In this document: positions 51,526 to 61,853 of the stretch, in pieces | Position numbering within the stretch: the stretch's first letter is position 1 | How the letters are laid out: each line of letters begins with the position of its first letter | DNA from: Sphingobium sp. | Lineage (GTDB): Bacteria > Pseudomonadota > Alphaproteobacteria > Sphingomonadales > Sphingomonadaceae | Assembly (NCBI GenBank): GCA_036404995.1 | Contig: DASWYL010000011.1 | Span: 995-64,994 of the forward strand | Length of the DNA stretch: 64,000 nt | Direction: 5' to 3' | Translations under genes and position numbers: made by a program | The notes under the pieces: generated by a model | What the model was told of the DNA's origin: nothing | Seen by the model: the letters and a program-made list of their open reading frames with translations, nothing else | The model's database searches: none

Positions 51526-52776
51526 CTATCGGCCTATCAGGCTGAGCAATTTGTAGGCCGCGACGATTCGATCCGTCTGGGCTTTCGCGAGAGCAGCAGC
51601 GGCGCCCGTCGCTTCGCGTTCAGCGTTCAAAAGATCGAGCTGGGGCTTCAGGCCGACACGCACTTCATGCGCAACGCTGTCACGCGCCTGCCCCGCAGAT
51701 CCGGCCTGCCGGGCCGACGCTGCTTCGACGAGCAGGGCAGTCTGGACCGCCTGGAAAGCGCCAATGACCTGCTCCTTCACCTGATTTTGTGCGACGTCGA
51801 ATCGCGCCTGGGCGGCACGGACGGCGCTATCGCTCCCGGCAACCTTGGCCGATACGATGGCATTGAAGATTTGCCAGCGGGCGCGGACGCCGACCGTGGC
51901 GCTGTCCGCCCGATAGTCCGGGAAGAACTGGTCACGGACCATTGCTCCTTCGGCAAAGGCGCCGACGGTCGGCAATCGCTCGGCGCGCGCACCGCGGGCA
52001 GCAGCCCGCGCCGCGCGCAGGCCAGCCTCAGCCTCCGCCAGCCAAGGATTGTGCTGGAGCGCGGCATCCATGGCCTCATCCAGCGTCGCGGGAATTTGGG
52101 GATTGGCGGGCAGCGGTTCGAGCCCATCCGGCGAAAGGCCGGTCAAATTCGAAAAGCGGGCATCGGCTGCAATCACAAATCCTTTCGATTGGGCAAGACC
52201 CGCCTCCGCTTCCGCGAGCCGCGCGGCGGCCTGCGCCACGTCAGTGCTGGGGCTCTCACCGGCCTTGTAACGCAGCTGAGCCTGCCGCTGAATCTCCTGC
52301 ATCTGCATGAGCAGTTCTGTGTTGAGCGCGACCATGCGGCGGCTTGTCAGGACGTCGCCATAGGCCTGCGCGACGGCGGCAACCATCTGGCTGCGGGTCG
52401 CGTTTTCGCCGGCCCGGGCCGCATCGTTGCCGGCATTCGCCTGCGCGATTCCTGCCCTGATGCGTCCACCAGCATAGATTGGCTGCTCGATCGTCACCTG
52501 TGCCGCGCGCGGCGTTACATTGGCAGCGCCCAGGCCGAAGAAGTTCTGAGGGTCAAGGCGGCCGACGCCGATCGTCCCGGTCACTGTGGCTGTCGGCAGA
52601 CCGCCGGCCTTCGCCTCACGCACGCGCGCTGCAGCGGTGTCGCTGTCTGCGTGCGCCGCCTCGATTTCGGGTGCATGCTTCAGCGCCGCTGCAATCGCCT
52701 CGTCCAGCGTTGTCGCCTGCGCAGGCAGGGCAATGCCGGTGAGCAGGCCAATCAGGATCAGCCGGCCAGTCTTCAT
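51526..52776 (-). CDS. TolC-family outer-membrane efflux protein
   Basis: Signal peptide, TLDEAI..AL...P, QPIY.GG, duplicated OEP repeats, G.K..LDLL.AE. Confidence 0.92.
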   Translation of the reverse strand: MKTGRLILIGLLTGIALPAQATTLDEAIAAALKHAPEIEAAHADSDTAAARVREAKAGGLPTATVTGTIGVGRLDPQNFFGLGAANVTPRAAQVTIEQPIYAGGRIRAGIAQANAGNDAARAGENATRSQMVAAVAQAYGDVLTSRRMVALNTELLMQMQEIQRQAQLRYKAGESPSTDVAQAAARLAEAEAGLAQSKGFVIAADARFSNLTGLSPDGLEPLPANPQIPATLDEAMDAALQHNPWLAEAEAGLRAARAAARGARAERLPTVGAFAEGAMVRDQFFPDYRADSATVGVRARWQIFNAIVSAKVAGSDSAVRAAQARFDVAQNQVKEQVIGAFQAVQTALLVEAASARQAGSAGQARDSVAHEVRVGLKPQLDLLNAEREATGAAAALAKAQTDRIVAAYKLLSLIGR

Positions 52777-52976
52777 CTGAAGGCGTTTCCGGGACGCACG
52801 CCCATCGCTTTGAAGATCATGGCCGCCGGGCAGAAACCGGTAATGCCCGCCTGGATCATATTGAGACCGGCGAAGACGGTGAGCGCGATCCACCAGGGGT
52901 GGACCGTGAGCGACAGCGTCACACCGAGCAACACGACGAAGCCGGCGAACATCAGGACGGCACGATCGATATTCAT
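52773..52976 (-). CDS. DUF2892 (YgaP membrane domain) protein
   Basis: MNIDRAVL.FAG...W..LT.F.G.N..QA..TGFCP, two TM helices with conserved Cys. Confidence 0.9.
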   Translation of the reverse strand: MNIDRAVLMFAGFVVLLGVTLSLTVHPWWIALTVFAGLNMIQAGITGFCPAAMIFKAMGVRPGNAFR

Positions 52977-53011
52977 GGCAATTTCTCCCAACCTGAGGAC
53001 TCTTGGCGCCG

Positions 53012-54292
53012 TCAGAGACGCAGCTTGCGGATGCCCATGACATGCAGGGCCAGCTTCTCGTAGAAGGGCTCGCTCTCGCCCTTGCGGACCTTGCGCAGGA
53101 AATATTTCTCGAAGCCGATCTTCGCCAGATGGACCCATTTGCCGCTCGACGACCAGTTGACGTTCCGCGGAGGAATCTGTGGCTGGGCGACGAAAGCGAC
53201 ACCACCGTCACCGAAGTCGGCGAGGCAGACCGCGTTCCACGTGGCCTCGGCGGTCGCCTCCTTGCCGTCGATGATCGCCGCGAGATTGGCGGCAATCGCG
53301 GTCACCATGCTCTCGATCATGAAGCCGGTCTTGGGGACGCCGACAGGCACGGGCGTCGGCCCCGTGGGCGGGATCGCGACGCAGACGCCCAGCGCAAAAA
53401 TCTCCGGGAAGGCAGGATTGCGCTGATGCTTGTCGACCAGGATGAAGCCGCGTGGATTGGTGAGACCTTCGATGCCGCGCACGGCGGGCACGCCGCGGAA
53501 GGCGGGCAGCATCATCGAGAAGCCGAAGGGCAGGTTGTGGGTCTTCTTGACCGCGCCGTCCTCGCCAACTTCCTCGACATGCATCATGCCGGCCTCGACC
53601 TTCGCGACCTTGGCGTTGGTGATCCACTTGATGTGGCGATTGCGCATCTCGCTTTCGAGCAGACCTTTGGTGTCGCCGACACCATCGAGGCCGAGATGGC
53701 CGATATAGGGCTCGGAGGTCACGAAGGTCATCGGCACCTTGTCGCGAATCTTGCGTTTGCGCAGCTCGGTGTCGAGGATCAGCGCGAACTCATAGGCCGG
53801 GCCGAAACAGGATGCCGCCTGCACGGCGCCGACGACGATGGGGCCGGGATTGGCGCAGAAGGCGTCGAATGCGTCGGCAGCTTTGGAGGCATGGGCGGTC
53901 TGGCAGACCGAGACAGTATGGCCACCGTGAGGCCCCAGCCCCTCGATCTCGTCGAAAGCGAGATCGGGGCCGGTTGCAATCACCAGATAGTCATAGTCGA
54001 TCGACGTCCCATCATTCAGTTCCACGCGCTTCTCCGCCGGGTGGAGCCGCTTCGCACCAACAGGAGTGAAACCGATCTTCTTCTTGGCGAAGACGGGCGG
54101 CAGATGGACCTGGATCGCTTCTGGCTCGCGCCAGCGCACAGCGACCCAAGGGTTTGATGGAACGAAGCTATATGTCTCGGAGTCGGAGACGGTCATCACC
54201 TCGGCCCTGTCCTTGACGGCGGCCTTGATCTCGTAGGCGGCGATCGTTCCACCCAGACCGGCACCCAGAACCACGATCTTCGGCTTGCCCAT
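53012..54292 (-). CDS. sqr: Sulfide:quinone oxidoreductase, type I (SqrA)
   Basis: GAGLGG, FVPSNPW, SCFGPAYE, EPY.GHLGL.G, PKTGFMIE, WNAVCLADFG, K.GFEKYF. Confidence 0.95.
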   Translation of the reverse strand: MGKPKIVVLGAGLGGTIAAYEIKAAVKDRAEVMTVSDSETYSFVPSNPWVAVRWREPEAIQVHLPPVFAKKKIGFTPVGAKRLHPAEKRVELNDGTSIDYDYLVIATGPDLAFDEIEGLGPHGGHTVSVCQTAHASKAADAFDAFCANPGPIVVGAVQAASCFGPAYEFALILDTELRKRKIRDKVPMTFVTSEPYIGHLGLDGVGDTKGLLESEMRNRHIKWITNAKVAKVEAGMMHVEEVGEDGAVKKTHNLPFGFSMMLPAFRGVPAVRGIEGLTNPRGFILVDKHQRNPAFPEIFALGVCVAIPPTGPTPVPVGVPKTGFMIESMVTAIAANLAAIIDGKEATAEATWNAVCLADFGDGGVAFVAQPQIPPRNVNWSSSGKWVHLAKIGFEKYFLRKVRKGESEPFYEKLALHVMGIRKLRL

Positions 54293-54320
54293 CGGTCCTT
54301 CTCCATTTCTTCAATCGTCA

Positions 54321-54349
54321 TTGACTAATATAAGCATCTCACGATATAT
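54321..54349 (+). promoter_or_regulatory. Divergent sqr/rhodanese promoter with ArsR-type operator
   Basis: TTGACT (54321-54326)-N17-ATATAT (54344-54349). Inverted repeat ATATA-N12-TATAT at 54328-54349 spans the spacer and -10. Confidence 0.65.
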
Positions 54350-54376
54350 GCAATGGGGAAATTGAAGGAGGCATCC

Positions 54377-54715
54377 ATGTTCGGATTCGGAAAAGGCAGG
54401 GCTCATCGCGAGATCGGGCCGATGGAACTTGACGCCATGCTGAAAAATGACGCCGTGTTGCTTGTCGACGTGCGCGAGCCAGACGAGTTCGCTTCGGGCC
54501 ACATTGCAGGTGCAGTAAACATGCCGCTGTCGACATTTTCACCTCGTAATGTTCCGGATGCACAGGGCCGGACCGTCGTGCTGCAATGCGCCGGCGGAAA
54601 GCGCTCGGGCATGGCGCTTGAGAAATGTGGTCAGGCGCAGTCAGCCATCGACACCCATCTGGCCGGCGGCATCGGGGCTTGGAAATCTGCCGGACTTCCC
54701 GTGGTGACGGGCTGA
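54377..54715 (+). CDS. Single-domain rhodanese (sulfurtransferase)
   Basis: DVREPDEF..GHI.GA, active-site CAGGKRS, LAGGI.AW..AGLP. Confidence 0.94.
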   Translation: MFGFGKGRAHREIGPMELDAMLKNDAVLLVDVREPDEFASGHIAGAVNMPLSTFSPRNVPDAQGRTVVLQCAGGKRSGMALEKCGQAQSAIDTHLAGGIGAWKSAGLPVVTG

Positions 54716-54734
54716 AACGGCGAACGGGGATCAT

Positions 54735-55762
54735 ATGATGGCGAAGAGAGCGAAAGCGTTCTGGCTTTACGGCGCATTGTTGGCCCTTTCAGCATGTGGC
54801 GGTGAACCCGTACCGGAACAGCGGTCGGCCAGCCTGCCCGCAGGCGAGACGCTGCGCCTCGCCCTGAGGGACATCGCCGACATGAAAGCTGTTGGTGCCG
54901 AAATCGCCACCCGCGATCAGGCCGAGGCTTTGGCCCGCATCCCCGGCACGCTCACCAGCCTCTCCGTTCGCGCCGGCGACATGGTCAGCAAGGGCCAGCG
55001 CATCGGCATGATCGTTGATGCGAGGCTCGGCTATGAAACCAGCGCCTATGGCGCGCAGGTCGCCGCAGCACAGGCTGAGGCCGCCCGCGCCAATGGCGAT
55101 CTCGCGCGTATCCAGGACCTCTACAATAATGGCGTCTACGCCAAGGCGCGGCTTGATCAGGCGGTCGCTGCCGCCAAGGCGGCAAATGCAATGGTCGCGG
55201 CTGCCCAGGCCCAGCGAGGCGCGAGTGCCAGCGTTGCGGGACAGGGTGCCGTGCTGGCCCCGGCAAGCGGTCGCGTCCTGCGCGCCGACATCCCGGCCGG
55301 GTCGGTCGTGGCGCCGGGCATGTCGATCGCAACCGTGACCGCAGGACCACCCATCCTGCGCCTCATGCTGCCAGAGTCGGCGGCCGGTGCAGTTCACACC
55401 GGTTCGCGCGTGCTGGTCACCGATACGAACTATTCCGGCACGCGCGAGGGCGTCGTCGCGCAGGTCTATCCGGGCGTCAGTGGCGGACAGGTCCGTGTCG
55501 ATGCGACGCTGCCGGGCCTCACCACCGATTTCGTTGGGCGCCGCATCAGCGCCTCCGTCTCCCTGGGCACACGCAAGGCGCTGGTGGTCCCGCGCCGCTT
55601 CGTCACGACGCAATATGGCATCGACCAGGTGCACGTCCTGGGCAGCGACAAGGCTCTCAGCATGGTGCCGGTGCAGGTTGCGCCGACAGACGACCCGGAA
55701 ATGCTCGAGATCCTGAGCGGCGTGACTGCGGGTGATACGCTGTTCGTTCCAAAGGGCGCGAA

Positions 55763-55766
<4 letters not shown>
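54735..55766 (+). CDS. RND efflux periplasmic adaptor (MFP) lipoprotein
   Basis: Lipobox LSAC, lipoyl halves (ARI.G....L.V..GD.V..GQ; APASG.V), coiled-coil hairpin, EILSG...GD. Confidence 0.92.
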
Positions 55767-58965
<3,199 letters not shown>

Positions 58966-58969
<4 letters not shown>

Positions 58970-59289
58970 AGATGGAAGACATGAAACTCGGCCTGCTGTG
59001 CGAGCGCGCGACGGAAGTCGCCGCCATGCTCAAATTGGTCGCCAACCAGCAACGGCTGGTGCTGCTTTGCCGGTTGCGTGAAGGCGAGGCGTCGGTCAGC
59101 GAGTTGATTAATCTGTGCGGTCTCTCGCAGTCGAGTGTATCCCAGCATCTTGCGAAGATGCGGGAAGGCGGCATTTTGCAGACCCGTCGAGATGCCCAGA
59201 CAATTTATTATCGGCTCGAGAACCCGCATGTCGAAGCGCTGATGGAATTCATGTGCGACCGCTTCCAACCGCAACCCGAGCAAGGCTGA
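58966..59289 (+). CDS. ArsR-family repressor, BigR/SqrR/YgaV-like
   Basis: LK..AN..RL.LLC.L..GE.SV.EL, QS..SQHLA..R, TRRDAQTIYY.L, C-terminal Cys. Confidence 0.88.
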
Positions 59290-59356
59290 AGCCGCGCGTG
59301 AGAATGAGACGAAGAGGTTGCGCCTGCTGCTAATGTAACGGAACGGAGTTGCCCCG

Positions 59357-60751
59357 ATGACCGCGCTCATACTGGCCCGTGCGCAGTTCGCCTTCGTGGT
59401 GAGCTTCCACTTCCTGTTTCCGGCTTTCACGATCGGGCTGGCGAGTTTTCTCGCGGTGCTCGAGGGGTTGTGGCTGAAGACCGGTCGCGGCGTCTACGCC
59501 AATCTCTATCGCTACTGGCTCAAGATCTTCGCGATCGTCTTCGCCATGGGCGTCGTCTCGGGCATCGTCATGTCTTACCAGTTCGGCACAAACTGGTCGG
59601 TCTTTTCGGATAAGGCCGGTCCCGTCATCGGGCCGCTCATGGCCTATGAGGTGCTCACCGCCTTCTTCCTCGAGGCGGGCTTTCTCGGCGTCATGTTGTT
59701 CGGCATCAACAAGGTGGGCCGAAAGCTTCATTTCACAGCGACGCTCGCCGTCGCAGTCGGCACATTCATCTCGGCCTTCTGGATTCTCGCCGTGAACAGC
59801 TGGATGCAGACGCCGGTCGGCTATGAGATGGGCGCCAACGGCCAGTTCCTGCCGGGTCCGAGCTGGACCACGATCATCTTCAGCCCCAGCTTCCCCTATC
59901 GCCTGGTCCACACCGTGCTGGCAGCCTATCTGACGACGGCCTTCGCGATTGGTGGCGTCGGAGCCTTCCATCTGCTCAAGGACTGGAAGAACCCCGGTGC
60001 TCGCAAGATGTTCTCCATGGCGATGTGGATGGCGGCGATTGTCGCGCCGATCCAGATTTTTGCCGGCGACATGCACGGGCTCAACACACTTGAGCATCAG
60101 CCGGCCAAGGTCATGGCGATGGAAGGTCATTATCAAAGCCATCCCGACGGCGCGCCGCTCATCCTGTTCGGCATACCCAACAGCAAGGAGAAGCGCGTCG
60201 ACTATGCGGTCGAGATTCCCAAGGCGTCTTCGCTGATCCTGAAGCATGACCCCAATGCGCCGCTCGCCGGGCTCGACACTGTGCCCTCAGAGGACCAGCC
60301 GCCGGTCGGCATCGTTTTCTGGGCCTTCCGCGTCATGGTCGGGCTCGGCTTCGCCATGGCTGGCCTTGGCCTTTGGAGCCTGGTCGCACGATGGCGCGGC
60401 AAGCTCTACGACTGGACTTGGCTGCATCGCGCGGCGCTGGCGATGGGACCCGCCGGCTTCGTCGCCGTGCTGGCCGGGTGGATTGTCACCGAGGTCGGCC
60501 GCCAGCCCTTCACCATCTATGGCTTGCTACGTACAGCGGACAGTGCCTCTCCCCTCGACGCGCCAGCCGTCGCGACGTCGCTCGTCGCTTTCGCGGCGAC
60601 CTATTTCATCGTGTTCGGCATGGGCATCCTCTATCTGTTGAAACTCATGCGCAAACCGCCCGAGGCGCACGAAGCCATGTTGGATGGCACGCCGATCCGC
60701 AGCGCCGGCGTCACGCCCGCTCCCGCGGTCCTGGAAGGAGGGCAGCCATGA
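59357..60751 (+). CDS. cydA: Cytochrome bd (CioA-like, short Q-loop) oxidase subunit I
   Basis: LARAQF....FH..FP, YQFGTNW, FFLE, NSWMQTP, QPAK..AMEG, TEVGRQP. Confidence 0.96.
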   Translation: MTALILARAQFAFVVSFHFLFPAFTIGLASFLAVLEGLWLKTGRGVYANLYRYWLKIFAIVFAMGVVSGIVMSYQFGTNWSVFSDKAGPVIGPLMAYEVLTAFFLEAGFLGVMLFGINKVGRKLHFTATLAVAVGTFISAFWILAVNSWMQTPVGYEMGANGQFLPGPSWTTIIFSPSFPYRLVHTVLAAYLTTAFAIGGVGAFHLLKDWKNPGARKMFSMAMWMAAIVAPIQIFAGDMHGLNTLEHQPAKVMAMEGHYQSHPDGAPLILFGIPNSKEKRVDYAVEIPKASSLILKHDPNAPLAGLDTVPSEDQPPVGIVFWAFRVMVGLGFAMAGLGLWSLVARWRGKLYDWTWLHRAALAMGPAGFVAVLAGWIVTEVGRQPFTIYGLLRTADSASPLDAPAVATSLVAFAATYFIVFGMGILYLLKLMRKPPEAHEAMLDGTPIRSAGVTPAPAVLEGGQP

Positions 60752-61746
60752 TCGACCTCACTGTCATCTGGGCCGGCATCATCGCCATCGCCATCATCGC
60801 CTATGTGGTGATGGATGGCTTCGATATTGGCATCGGCATCCTGTTCCAGTCCTTCAAGGTAGGCCCGGATCGCGACACGGCCATGAACAGCATCGCGCCG
60901 GTGTGGGACGGCAACGAGACCTGGCTGGTGATGGGCGGCGGTGGGCTTCTTGCCGCCTTCCCGCTGGCTTATGCGATCATTTTGCCCGCACTCTATGCGC
61001 CGCTCACAGCCATGCTGCTGGGGCTGGTGCTGCGCGGCGTGGCGTTCGAGTTTCGCTGGCGCGACGCTGCGCATCGCAAGACATGGGACGTCGCATTCAC
61101 ATTGGGCTCGACGATAGCGACGCTGGCGCAGGGCATTACGCTGGGCGCGCTGCTGCAGGGAATCCGGATCGAAGGCCGCGCTTATGCCGGAGGCTGGTGG
61201 GACTGGCTGACGCCGTTCAGCGTGCTGACGGGCGTCGGCCTCGTGGTCGGCTACAGCTTGCTGGGCGCGTGCTGGCTCAACTGGAAGACGGAAGGCGCGC
61301 TGCAGGAACAGGCGGCGAAGCTGGCGCGGCGCCTGGGGATGCTGCTCCTCCTGGTGATTGGGCTGGTCAGCCTGATGACGCTCGGGCTGGAGCCTGAATA
61401 TTATACCCGCTGGCTCGCCTATCCAGGTGTGCTCGCCACCGCGCAGGTGCCGCTGGCAACGCTCATCGTGACCGTGATGTTCTACCGGAGCCTGAACAAG
61501 CGGCAGGATGCTGCACCATTCTTCTGGGCGCTCGGCCTCTTCGGTCTGTCTCTTGTGGGCCTGGCTATTTCGATCTGGCCCTATGTCATTCCCGCCCGCG
61601 TGACGATCTGGGAGGCGGCTGCGCCGGTGCGCAGCCAGGTGTTCATGCTGATCGGCGCGGGCATCATGCTCCCAGTCATTCTGGCCTATACGGGCTGGGC
61701 CTATTGGGTGTTTCGCGGCAAGGTTGGGCACGGGGGCTACCATTGA
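60748..61746 (+). CDS. cydB: Cytochrome bd oxidase subunit II
   Basis: YVVMDGFD.G.G, PVWDGNETWL, RGVAFEFR, YWVFRGKV. ATG overlaps the cydA stop. Confidence 0.96.
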   Translation: MIDLTVIWAGIIAIAIIAYVVMDGFDIGIGILFQSFKVGPDRDTAMNSIAPVWDGNETWLVMGGGGLLAAFPLAYAIILPALYAPLTAMLLGLVLRGVAFEFRWRDAAHRKTWDVAFTLGSTIATLAQGITLGALLQGIRIEGRAYAGGWWDWLTPFSVLTGVGLVVGYSLLGACWLNWKTEGALQEQAAKLARRLGMLLLLVIGLVSLMTLGLEPEYYTRWLAYPGVLATAQVPLATLIVTVMFYRSLNKRQDAAPFFWALGLFGLSLVGLAISIWPYVIPARVTIWEAAAPVRSQVFMLIGAGIMLPVILAYTGWAYWVFRGKVGHGGYH

Positions 61747-61853
61747 TGCGACAAGCGCTCGCACGGCTAGGCTGGTTCGTTGGCCTCTGGTCGACGGGCG
61801 TGATCGTCTGCGCGACAGTCGCTTTCTGTATCCGCCTGTGGCTGCGAAGCTAA
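61746..61853 (+). CDS. Small DUF2474-family membrane protein (bd oxidase accessory)
   Basis: Manual translation MRQALARLGWFVGLWSTGVIVCATVAFCIRLWLRS (35 aa). ATG overlaps the cydB TGA. RL.W...LW..GV motif. Confidence 0.8.
   Translation: MRQALARLGWFVGLWSTGVIVCATVAFCIRLWLRS

Follow-up and report, generated by a model that had tools for sequence, protein, structure and literature searches.

We analyzed a 64,000-nucleotide stretch of a Sphingobium sp. genome (assembly GCA_036404995.1, contig DASWYL010000011.1, positions 995 to 64,994 of the forward strand; "the window" below). Positions 51526 to 61853 of the window hold a divergently transcribed module that encodes a sulfide:quinone oxidoreductase (SQR), a rhodanese, an ArsR-family regulator, all three parts of a resistance-nodulation-division (RND) efflux pump, and a cytochrome bd oxidase. 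This arrangement, in which the pump is split across two divergent arms, is far beyond chance: related loci from different species show the same divergon in 50 of 64 cases. We put at about even the chances that it is a reactive-sulfur-responsive sulfide-stress module whose pump probably expels the sulfane sulfur made by SQR. We favor this reading because the pump genes are interleaved with sulfur genes, with 4-bp overlaps, and stay linked to them in close and distant relatives; because each locus carries a single conserved dyad together with a BigR/SqrR-like ArsR whose C35 and C97 are invariant; because the proton relay of the pump is intact, the SQR is of type I with conserved cysteines, and a bd oxidase is recurrently found nearby; and because an RND-SQR operon of Azospira suillum is induced by H2S and RND pumps are neighbors of SqrR-type regulators.

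The disposal of SQR-made sulfane sulfur, and the way in which sulfur leaves Gram-negative cells, are poorly understood. A widespread RND subfamily that is wired to SQR, rhodanese, a candidate persulfide sensor, and the small membrane protein DUF2892 therefore offers a concrete and genetically tractable candidate. If our reading is correct, RND pumps would gain a new class of substrate, oxidized sulfide would gain a missing route across the outer membrane, and DUF2892 would gain a function. Such a result would also refine models of sulfide detoxification, which now contain only SQR, persulfide dioxygenase (PDO), rhodanese, and TauE. For the window itself, the analysis brings a correction: judged by gene content across the assembly and relatives, the pathway at this locus is not free of PDO, and the bd oxidase joined to it is a local addition.

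Gene arrangement and recurrence among relatives

The source is a Sphingomonadales metagenome-assembled genome (MAG) of 2.13 Mb in 83 contigs, which is 59% complete. Proteins were called by sequence comparison with Pfam, NCBIfam, and the PDB, and PDO and TauE were sought by tblastn of the whole assembly. The module consists of the following features:

51526-52776, minus strand: tolC, dedicated outer-membrane factor; it has a signal peptide and closes the sqr arm
52773-52976, minus strand: DUF2892, a YgaP-like two-helix membrane protein of 67 aa (Pfam PF11127, 43 bits)
53012-54292, minus strand: sqr, type I sulfide:quinone oxidoreductase of 426 aa (PDB matches)
54293-54376: divergent gap of exactly 84 bp, followed by the rhodanese start (ATG at 54377) behind GGAGG
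54321-54354, no strand: AT-rich dyad TTGACTAATAT-N12-ATATATGCAA of 34 bp, a putative ArsR operator by conservation
54377-54715, plus strand: single-domain rhodanese of 112 aa (Pfam Rhodanese, 54 bits)
54735-55766, plus strand: membrane fusion protein (MFP) adaptor, a lipoprotein (TIGR01730 RND_mfp, 113 bits, above cut-off)
55763-58969, plus strand: RND permease of 1068 aa, deep-branching and HAE-1-like (Pfam ACR_tran, 482 bits)
58966-59289, plus strand: ArsR-family regulator, BigR/SqrR/YgaV/HlyU-like, a candidate persulfide sensor (Pfam HTH_5)
59357-60751, plus strand: cydA, cytochrome bd subunit I of 464 aa in a short form like that of the cyanide-insensitive oxidase (CIO) (Pfam Cyt_bd_oxida_I, 546 bits)
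60748-61746, plus strand: cydB, cytochrome bd subunit II (Pfam Cyt_bd_oxida_II, 322 bits; TIGR00203, 162 bits, above cut-off)
61746-61853, plus strand: DUF2474-like small membrane open reading frame (ORF) of 35 aa after cydB (weak Pfam match)

An earlier note on this DNA had described the same gene order, and every gene that it named was found by Pfam, NCBIfam, and PDB comparison where it had placed it. The 84-bp divergent gap between sqr-DUF2892-tolC and rhodanese-MFP-RND-ArsR-cydA-cydB-DUF2474 that it reported is likewise present, as is the split of the pump, with tolC on the minus arm and the MFP and RND genes on the plus arm. Overlaps of 4 bp join the MFP gene to the RND gene, the RND gene to the ArsR gene, and cydA to cydB, and the DUF2892 stop and the tolC start share a 4-bp ATGA overlap.

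Close relatives of the module were collected by scanning one genome per species, which gave 80 loci with an RND protein 65-93% identical to that of the window, mostly from sphingomonads but also from some Caulobacterales and Rhizobiales. Partner counts use the 64 of these loci that have at least 4.5 kb upstream, the ArsR count uses 74, and counts of 10-kb neighborhoods use the 47 flanked by 9 kb or more on each side. DUF2892 was present in all 64 loci, SQR in 61, rhodanese in 56, and TolC in 53, and the 50 loci mentioned above contain all five partners in the same layout. The ArsR gene directly follows the RND gene in 57/74 loci, and a variant order, SQR-DUF2892 <> ArsR-MFP-RND, was seen in Rhizobiales.

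Linkage was also followed into more distant relatives. Across 401 genomes sampled from the whole phylum, 173 encode an RND homolog at E ≤ 1e-150, and 60 such loci were fetched. In a FastTree tree of 80 RND members, 54 were sulfur-linked, meaning that SQR, DUF2892, rhodanese, or ArsR lay within 6 kb, and DUF2892 was found in 48 of those 54. Sulfur linkage held for 38 of 40 rows in the window's own clade, 8 of 15 in a mixed group, and 7 of 8 in a basal clade at 35-39% identity, and it extends to RND relatives 35-45% identical in other classes. In distant members, DUF2892 is encoded on the same strand as the pump, either 48-125 bp downstream of the RND gene or immediately ahead of the MFP gene. 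The earlier note had raised the question of whether this RND clade travels with sulfur genes; it does co-occur with sqr, DUF2892, rhodanese, and a BigR/SqrR-like ArsR, distant relatives included. Linkage that runs across the tree, with one sister clade unlinked, thus marks the association of this pump with sulfur genes as ancient and widespread within the subfamily, with at least one loss.

These patterns bear on a rival explanation, in which the pump is a general stress or multidrug pump that has no sulfur substrate and is merely placed under a persulfide sensor, comparable to MexR/MarR-type control. The existence of an RND sister clade without sulfur context fits this explanation, and sulfane sulfur is reported to regulate multidrug-resistance regulators (PMC9495516). 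However, shared regulation would not account for what is seen here: the pump genes are interleaved and translationally coupled with sulfur genes in dozens of species from several classes, and DUF2892 occurs in 64/64 close loci and beside the pump genes in distant ones. We therefore regard a pump without a sulfur substrate as quite improbable.

Several further observations concern individual loci. Proteins of the sister clade (L110-L128, e.g., L113:6488-10216) are 1200-1400 aa long through a C-terminal extension and are common in other classes; their loci have an MFP gene, and the other neighbors are mostly without Pfam matches. Two loci of the clade at 35-37% identity (L143:5165-6300 and L147:5258-6400) carry three tandem rhodanese genes between SQR and RND, and a separate DUF2892 was not detected in either. 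Sphingopyxis granuli NBRC 100800 carries the complete module twice, on separate contigs (L021, L022), and the module is also complete in Sphingobium chlorophenolicum NBRC 16172 (L016) and Novosphingobium sediminis (L028). Two MAG contigs labeled Phenylobacterium and Devosia (L018, L060) carry modules that are 89% identical to sphingomonad ones and fall inside the sphingomonad clade, reflecting either horizontal transfer or mis-binning. Outside the module in the window, genes for a major facilitator superfamily transporter, a CLC channel, and an FtsX-type permease flank it.

Regulator and divergent promoter

The ArsR protein matched the structures of HlyU, BigR, YgaV, and SqrR with E values of 1e-15 to 1e-18. 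Its C35 and C97 are invariant in 38 orthologs, C35 aligns with the BigR helix-2 cysteine in "LMLVC", and the protein has both the winged helix and the helix-2 cysteine of this group. The known systems of SqrR (Rhodobacter capsulatus), BigR (Xylella/Agrobacterium), and YgaV-YgaP (E. coli) are alike in having an ArsR-family repressor with two cysteines, one in helix 2 and one near the C-terminus, and in encoding it with sqr, rhodanese, and DUF2892-type genes. They differ from the window in detail. YgaP fuses rhodanese and DUF2892 in one protein, whereas here they are separate genes on opposite arms, and the SqrR operator is ATTC-N8-GAAT, whereas the gap here holds an AT-rich dyad instead. The published operator of R. 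capsulatus rcc1451 had no match across 150 loci.

The core of this dyad, TTGAC-n-AATAT-N12-(A/T)TAT(A/T)-n-GCAA, is kept in 58 of 60 sqr/rhodanese gaps. It occurs once per ~23-kb related locus and once in its own assembly, and a search before cydA, before pdo2, and elsewhere found none besides this single copy. The ends of the dyad read as face-to-face -35-like hexamers, TTGACT rightward and TTGCAT leftward, with spacers of 17-18 nt to weak -10-like hexamers. A simple promoter/terminator scan did not call divergent promoter sites in the gap, and it found no terminator and no clear promoter between ArsR and cydA. The dyad is probably the ArsR operator, overlapping two promoter-like hexamer pairs. 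Because the -35-like hexamers face each other at its ends, one dyad-bound dimer could shut both arms. In the assembly, which is 59% complete, no further BigR-like ArsR turned up.

In the mechanism that we propose, ArsR, as the last gene of the pump operon, would repress both arms through the single AT-rich dyad in the 84-bp gap. Sulfane sulfur would then bridge the two invariant cysteines, and ArsR would leave the DNA. We infer that sulfide induces both arms.

SQR, the pump, and the fate of the sulfur

Sequence comparison placed the SQR among type I enzymes. It matched the SQR of A. ferrooxidans (3SZ0/3T31) at 480 bits (E 5e-143) and that of Aquifex at 333 bits (E 2e-98), vs only E 3e-8 for human type II SQOR, and its C130, C162, C304, and C356 are invariant in 65 sequences. 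Like the SQR of R. capsulatus, it has no signal peptide. Enzymes of the type I family turn H2S into polysulfide or S8 at the membrane, with quinone receiving the electrons, and work on R. capsulatus and Aquifex has placed them on the periplasmic face. The SQR in the window would likewise convert H2S to polysulfide or S8 at the membrane and deliver electrons to the quinone pool.

Two smaller proteins accompany the SQR and the pump. The rhodanese has the active-site loop CAGGKRS, and both C71, the active-site residue, and C84 are invariant in 62 sequences; this predicted cytoplasmic enzyme would move persulfide sulfur that reaches the cytoplasm. DUF2892 matches the transmembrane domain of YgaP (2MPN, E 2e-5), and its motif GFCP contains Cys49, which does not vary across 71 sequences, whereas E. 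coli YgaP has a serine there. Because DUF2892 adjoins the pump genes on the same strand in distant members, its position suggests that it is a fourth, accessory part of the pump. A second DUF2892 gene lies away from the module on another contig (G000:C55:50996-51175) and, at 80.6 bits, matches the Pfam model better than the module copy does.

The pump has what a tripartite pump is expected to have, namely, an RND domain, a proton relay, and a cognate adaptor and outer-membrane factor. The permease domain spans the RND protein (ACR_tran residues 20-848 and beyond; NCBIfam RND models residues 13-1059), and its relay is intact, with D417, D418, R976, R1006, and T1013 corresponding to D407, D408, K940, R971, and T978 of AcrB; in every one of the 80 subfamily members aligned, Arg stands where AcrB has K940. 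The MFP has the lipobox LSAC, the cysteine of which is conserved in 80% of sequences, and TolC shows two repeats of Pfam OEP (185 bits) and a match to TIGR01844 TolC (208 bits). The RND permease falls well short of the cut-off of each named NCBIfam pump family (AcrB, MexB, MdtBC, OqxB, CusA/CzcA). The best NCBIfam model, RND_permease_2, gave 411 bits vs a cut-off of 1250, and CusA/CzcA gave 256 vs 701, and the nearest solved structure in the PDB was TriC (6VEJ, 216 bits). A close architectural parallel is AcrAB-TolC with the small accessory protein AcrZ of E. coli. Like AcrAB-TolC, the pump here is tripartite and keeps its proton relay, and its constant small-membrane-protein partner may be a fourth, accessory subunit. 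However, the RND protein here is only 20% identical to AcrB, and DUF2892 is unrelated to AcrZ.

We propose that MFP, RND, and TolC, probably with the cysteine-bearing DUF2892, would expel sulfide-derived species across the outer membrane, and that the exported species would most likely be sulfane sulfur held in the membrane or periplasm. Stated more broadly, the substrate of the pump is most likely sulfane sulfur or a closely related sulfide-derived product. A more specific version, in which the RND subfamily, with DUF2892 making up the fourth subunit, is dedicated to exporting zero-valent sulfur (S8, polysulfide, or persulfide) from type I SQR, is one that we hold tentatively, as somewhat less probable than its negation.

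The pairing of RND and SQR genes is already in print (PMC5358917, PMC12423496). In Azospira suillum PS, Dsui_3440-3443 encode a protein of unknown function, an RND protein, SQR, and an MFP. H2S strongly induces these genes, and Bar-seq shows that they contribute to fitness when H2S is present (Mehta-Kolte et al. 2017, PMC5358917). An Azospira DUF2892 gene is induced ~10-fold by sulfide (PMC5358917). The likeness lies in an SQR encoded with an RND permease and adaptor, with the subfamily of the Azospira pump compared by description only. By contrast, the Azospira genes have a different order and form a single operon, for which TolC, rhodanese, ArsR, and a bd oxidase are not described. In addition, a survey from the Dahl laboratory lists RND pumps among the neighbors of SqrR-type regulators (PMC12423496).

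The Azospira work also supplies a second rival explanation. Its authors proposed that sulfide-induced RND pumps export metal sulfides (PMC5358917), and more generally the pump could remove a secondary toxic product of sulfide, such as metal-sulfide or metal-thiol complexes, organic polysulfides, or thiol adducts. The RND protein is HAE-1-like, and its pocket, which is hydrophobic in part (F625 and F627 are retained; Y618), would suit organic molecules. A metal substrate finds less in its favor, as the likeness to CusA/CzcA is one of general fold only (256 bits vs 411 for the multidrug-type model), transmembrane helix 4 has DD and not the HME motif, and the constant partners of the pump are SQR, rhodanese, and DUF2892 rather than metal genes. 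Overall, we consider export of a secondary product unlikely, but the most credible of the alternatives.

A third rival explanation came from the earlier note, which had stated that the module lacks genes for PDO and TauE. This was confirmed, as tblastn of the whole assembly found no homolog of either on the module's contig. The note had gone on to propose a PDO-less pathway, in which the pump replaces PDO and sulfur passes through rhodanese and DUF2892 to be exported rather than oxidized. Consistent with that idea, about two-thirds of the fully flanked relatives are without pdo2 within 10 kb. However, the same search of the assembly located these genes on other contigs:

G000:C2:66658-67533, plus strand: pdo2, type II PDO (E 4e-97 to P. 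putida PDO 4YSK)
G000:C2:65705-66385, minus strand: tauE, divergent from pdo2 (tblastn of the assembly)
G000:C57:23742-24767: ETHE1-like PDO that carries a fused rhodanese at its C-terminal end (E 3e-51 to 4YSB)

The absence of pdo from the genome was thus not upheld, and we rejected it as a candidate, since PDO genes were found on two contigs (C2 and C57) despite the 59% completeness of the assembly. Among relatives, 16/47 loci have pdo2 within 10 kb of the module and 16/47 have tauE, and the two genes abut it in loci such as L028-L038, L091, L093, L095, and L097. Because PDO genes are present in the same genome and pdo2 and tauE lie near the module in relatives, the pump, judged by gene content, coexists with PDO and does not replace it. 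Export in place of oxidation is therefore unsupported, and we rate a PDO-less route as improbable. In our preferred reading of a sulfide-stress module with an exporting pump, the pdo2-tauE pair and the PDO-rhodanese fusion could oxidize persulfide sulfur in the cytoplasm to sulfite alongside the pump.

This combination can be compared with the sqr-pdo(-rhodanese) operons of Cupriavidus pinatubonensis and Pseudomonas putida (PP_0051-0053), which share with the module a sulfide detoxification by SQR and rhodanese (PMC9163753). PDO and TauE are present in this genome too, and stand beside the module in many relatives. Here, however, the SQR is of type I and not type II, pdo is unlinked, and a tripartite pump is built into the operons. 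The PDO-rhodanese fusion on C57 resembles the Burkholderia PRF protein. Immediately upstream of pdo2 stands an almost perfect AT-rich palindrome, TTGATATATTAGATTATACTAATATATAGTCAA, which is similar in style to the module dyad but distinct from it. Genes for peroxiredoxin, AhpD-like CMD proteins, and thioredoxin 2 were found within 10 kb in 23, 28, and 10 of 47 loci, respectively.

A number of results weigh against sulfane-sulfur export by a sulfide-responsive module. A literature search found no characterized RND pump for sulfane sulfur, which agrees with a remark in the earlier note that it knew of no biochemically characterized RND substrate of this kind. RND pumps usually take their substrates from the periplasm or the outer leaflet, whereas the rhodanese is without a signal peptide and Cys49 of DUF2892 is predicted to be on the cytoplasmic side. 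Periplasmic orientation of this SQR is assumed by analogy with its family. A conserved periplasmic cysteine was sought in the RND alignment and none was found, the sole cysteine of the protein, C559, being poorly placed and 84% conserved; therefore, no covalent sulfur relay is visible in the pump. The sister clade (16 rows, ~45% identity) is sulfur-linked in 0/16 rows, one locus of which was checked with Pfam. On the side of the regulator, ArsR scores 78.7 bits on the BigR model vs an equivalog cut-off of 155; its C97 lies 62 residues after C35, not 66, which is about one helical turn before the BigR/SqrR cysteine; and a search of the window for the SqrR box ATTC-N8-GAAT found none. Finally, deletion of the whole Azospira operon left the rate of sulfide oxidation unchanged (PMC5358917).

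The attached bd oxidase

The oxidase at the end of the plus arm belongs to the same Pfam bd family as E. coli bd-I and bd-II and CioAB-type enzymes. It differs from the E. coli oxidases in its short CIO-like form with DUF2474, in its lineage-specific attachment to the module, and in its CydA, which falls far short of the NCBIfam equivalog cut-offs for E. coli CydA/AppC. The DUF2474-like ORF is itself a below-cut-off match to Pfam DUF2474 (E 1.5e-3, 18.9 bits), and it is kept at the same place, with 62% identity, in L023, a close relative. Sulfide tolerance is established for the E. coli bd oxidases and, by analogy, may extend to this one. In this lineage, CIO-like cydAB-DUF2474 would reoxidize the quinol made by SQR, as a member of an oxidase type with known sulfide tolerance. 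Because the genome also encodes heme-copper oxidases, the bd oxidase could act as a sulfide-tolerant bypass.

The fusion ArsR-cydA-cydB-DUF2474 was found in just 1 of the 80 related loci, that of L023. In a locus from another alphaproteobacterial family (L096:162-5430), a CIO-type cydAB that is ~50% identical follows tolC on the sqr-DUF2892-tolC arm. On this distribution, a bd oxidase joined the module at least twice independently, once in the lineage of the window and L023 and once in that of L096. Another type of cydAB, the canonical one, accompanied by cydDC, is found within 10 kb of the module in 20/47 loci. Judged by these counts, the association of bd oxidase and module is recurrent but facultative, and the fusion in the window is lineage-specific and a local addition. 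The earlier note had electrons flowing from H2S through SQR and quinone to the bd oxidase; this coupling is plausible given the recurrent accretion of bd genes in the window and L023, in L096, and nearby in 20/47 loci. The direct fusion itself is shared with L023 alone among the related loci.

The oxidase also enters into a fourth rival explanation, in which the locus is a cyanide or thiocyanate module, with rhodanese making thiocyanate from cyanide and the sulfane sulfur of SQR, DUF2892 and the pump exporting it, and the bd oxidase sustaining respiration. The rhodanese loop is of the thiosulfate:cyanide sulfurtransferase type, the membrane domain of YgaP has been discussed in connection with thiocyanate, and the bd oxidase is of the short, CIO-like type and has DUF2474 beside it. 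By contrast, the CIO-type oxidase is attached in just 2 independent lineages, the regulator is of the persulfide-sensor type, and no cyanide-related genes were seen, so we judge a cyanide function highly improbable.

The canonical oxidase genes have a recurrent setting of their own. In L035 (13737-20852) and ~20 other sphingomonad loci, cydAB is divergent from cydDC and stands between the pump operon and a peroxiredoxin-ArsR2 unit. An ArsR2-cydDCAB operon was considered for these relatives and rejected, since in L035 cydDC is on the opposite strand to cydAB and ArsR2. These loci look as if they were embedded in a larger sulfide/redox island.

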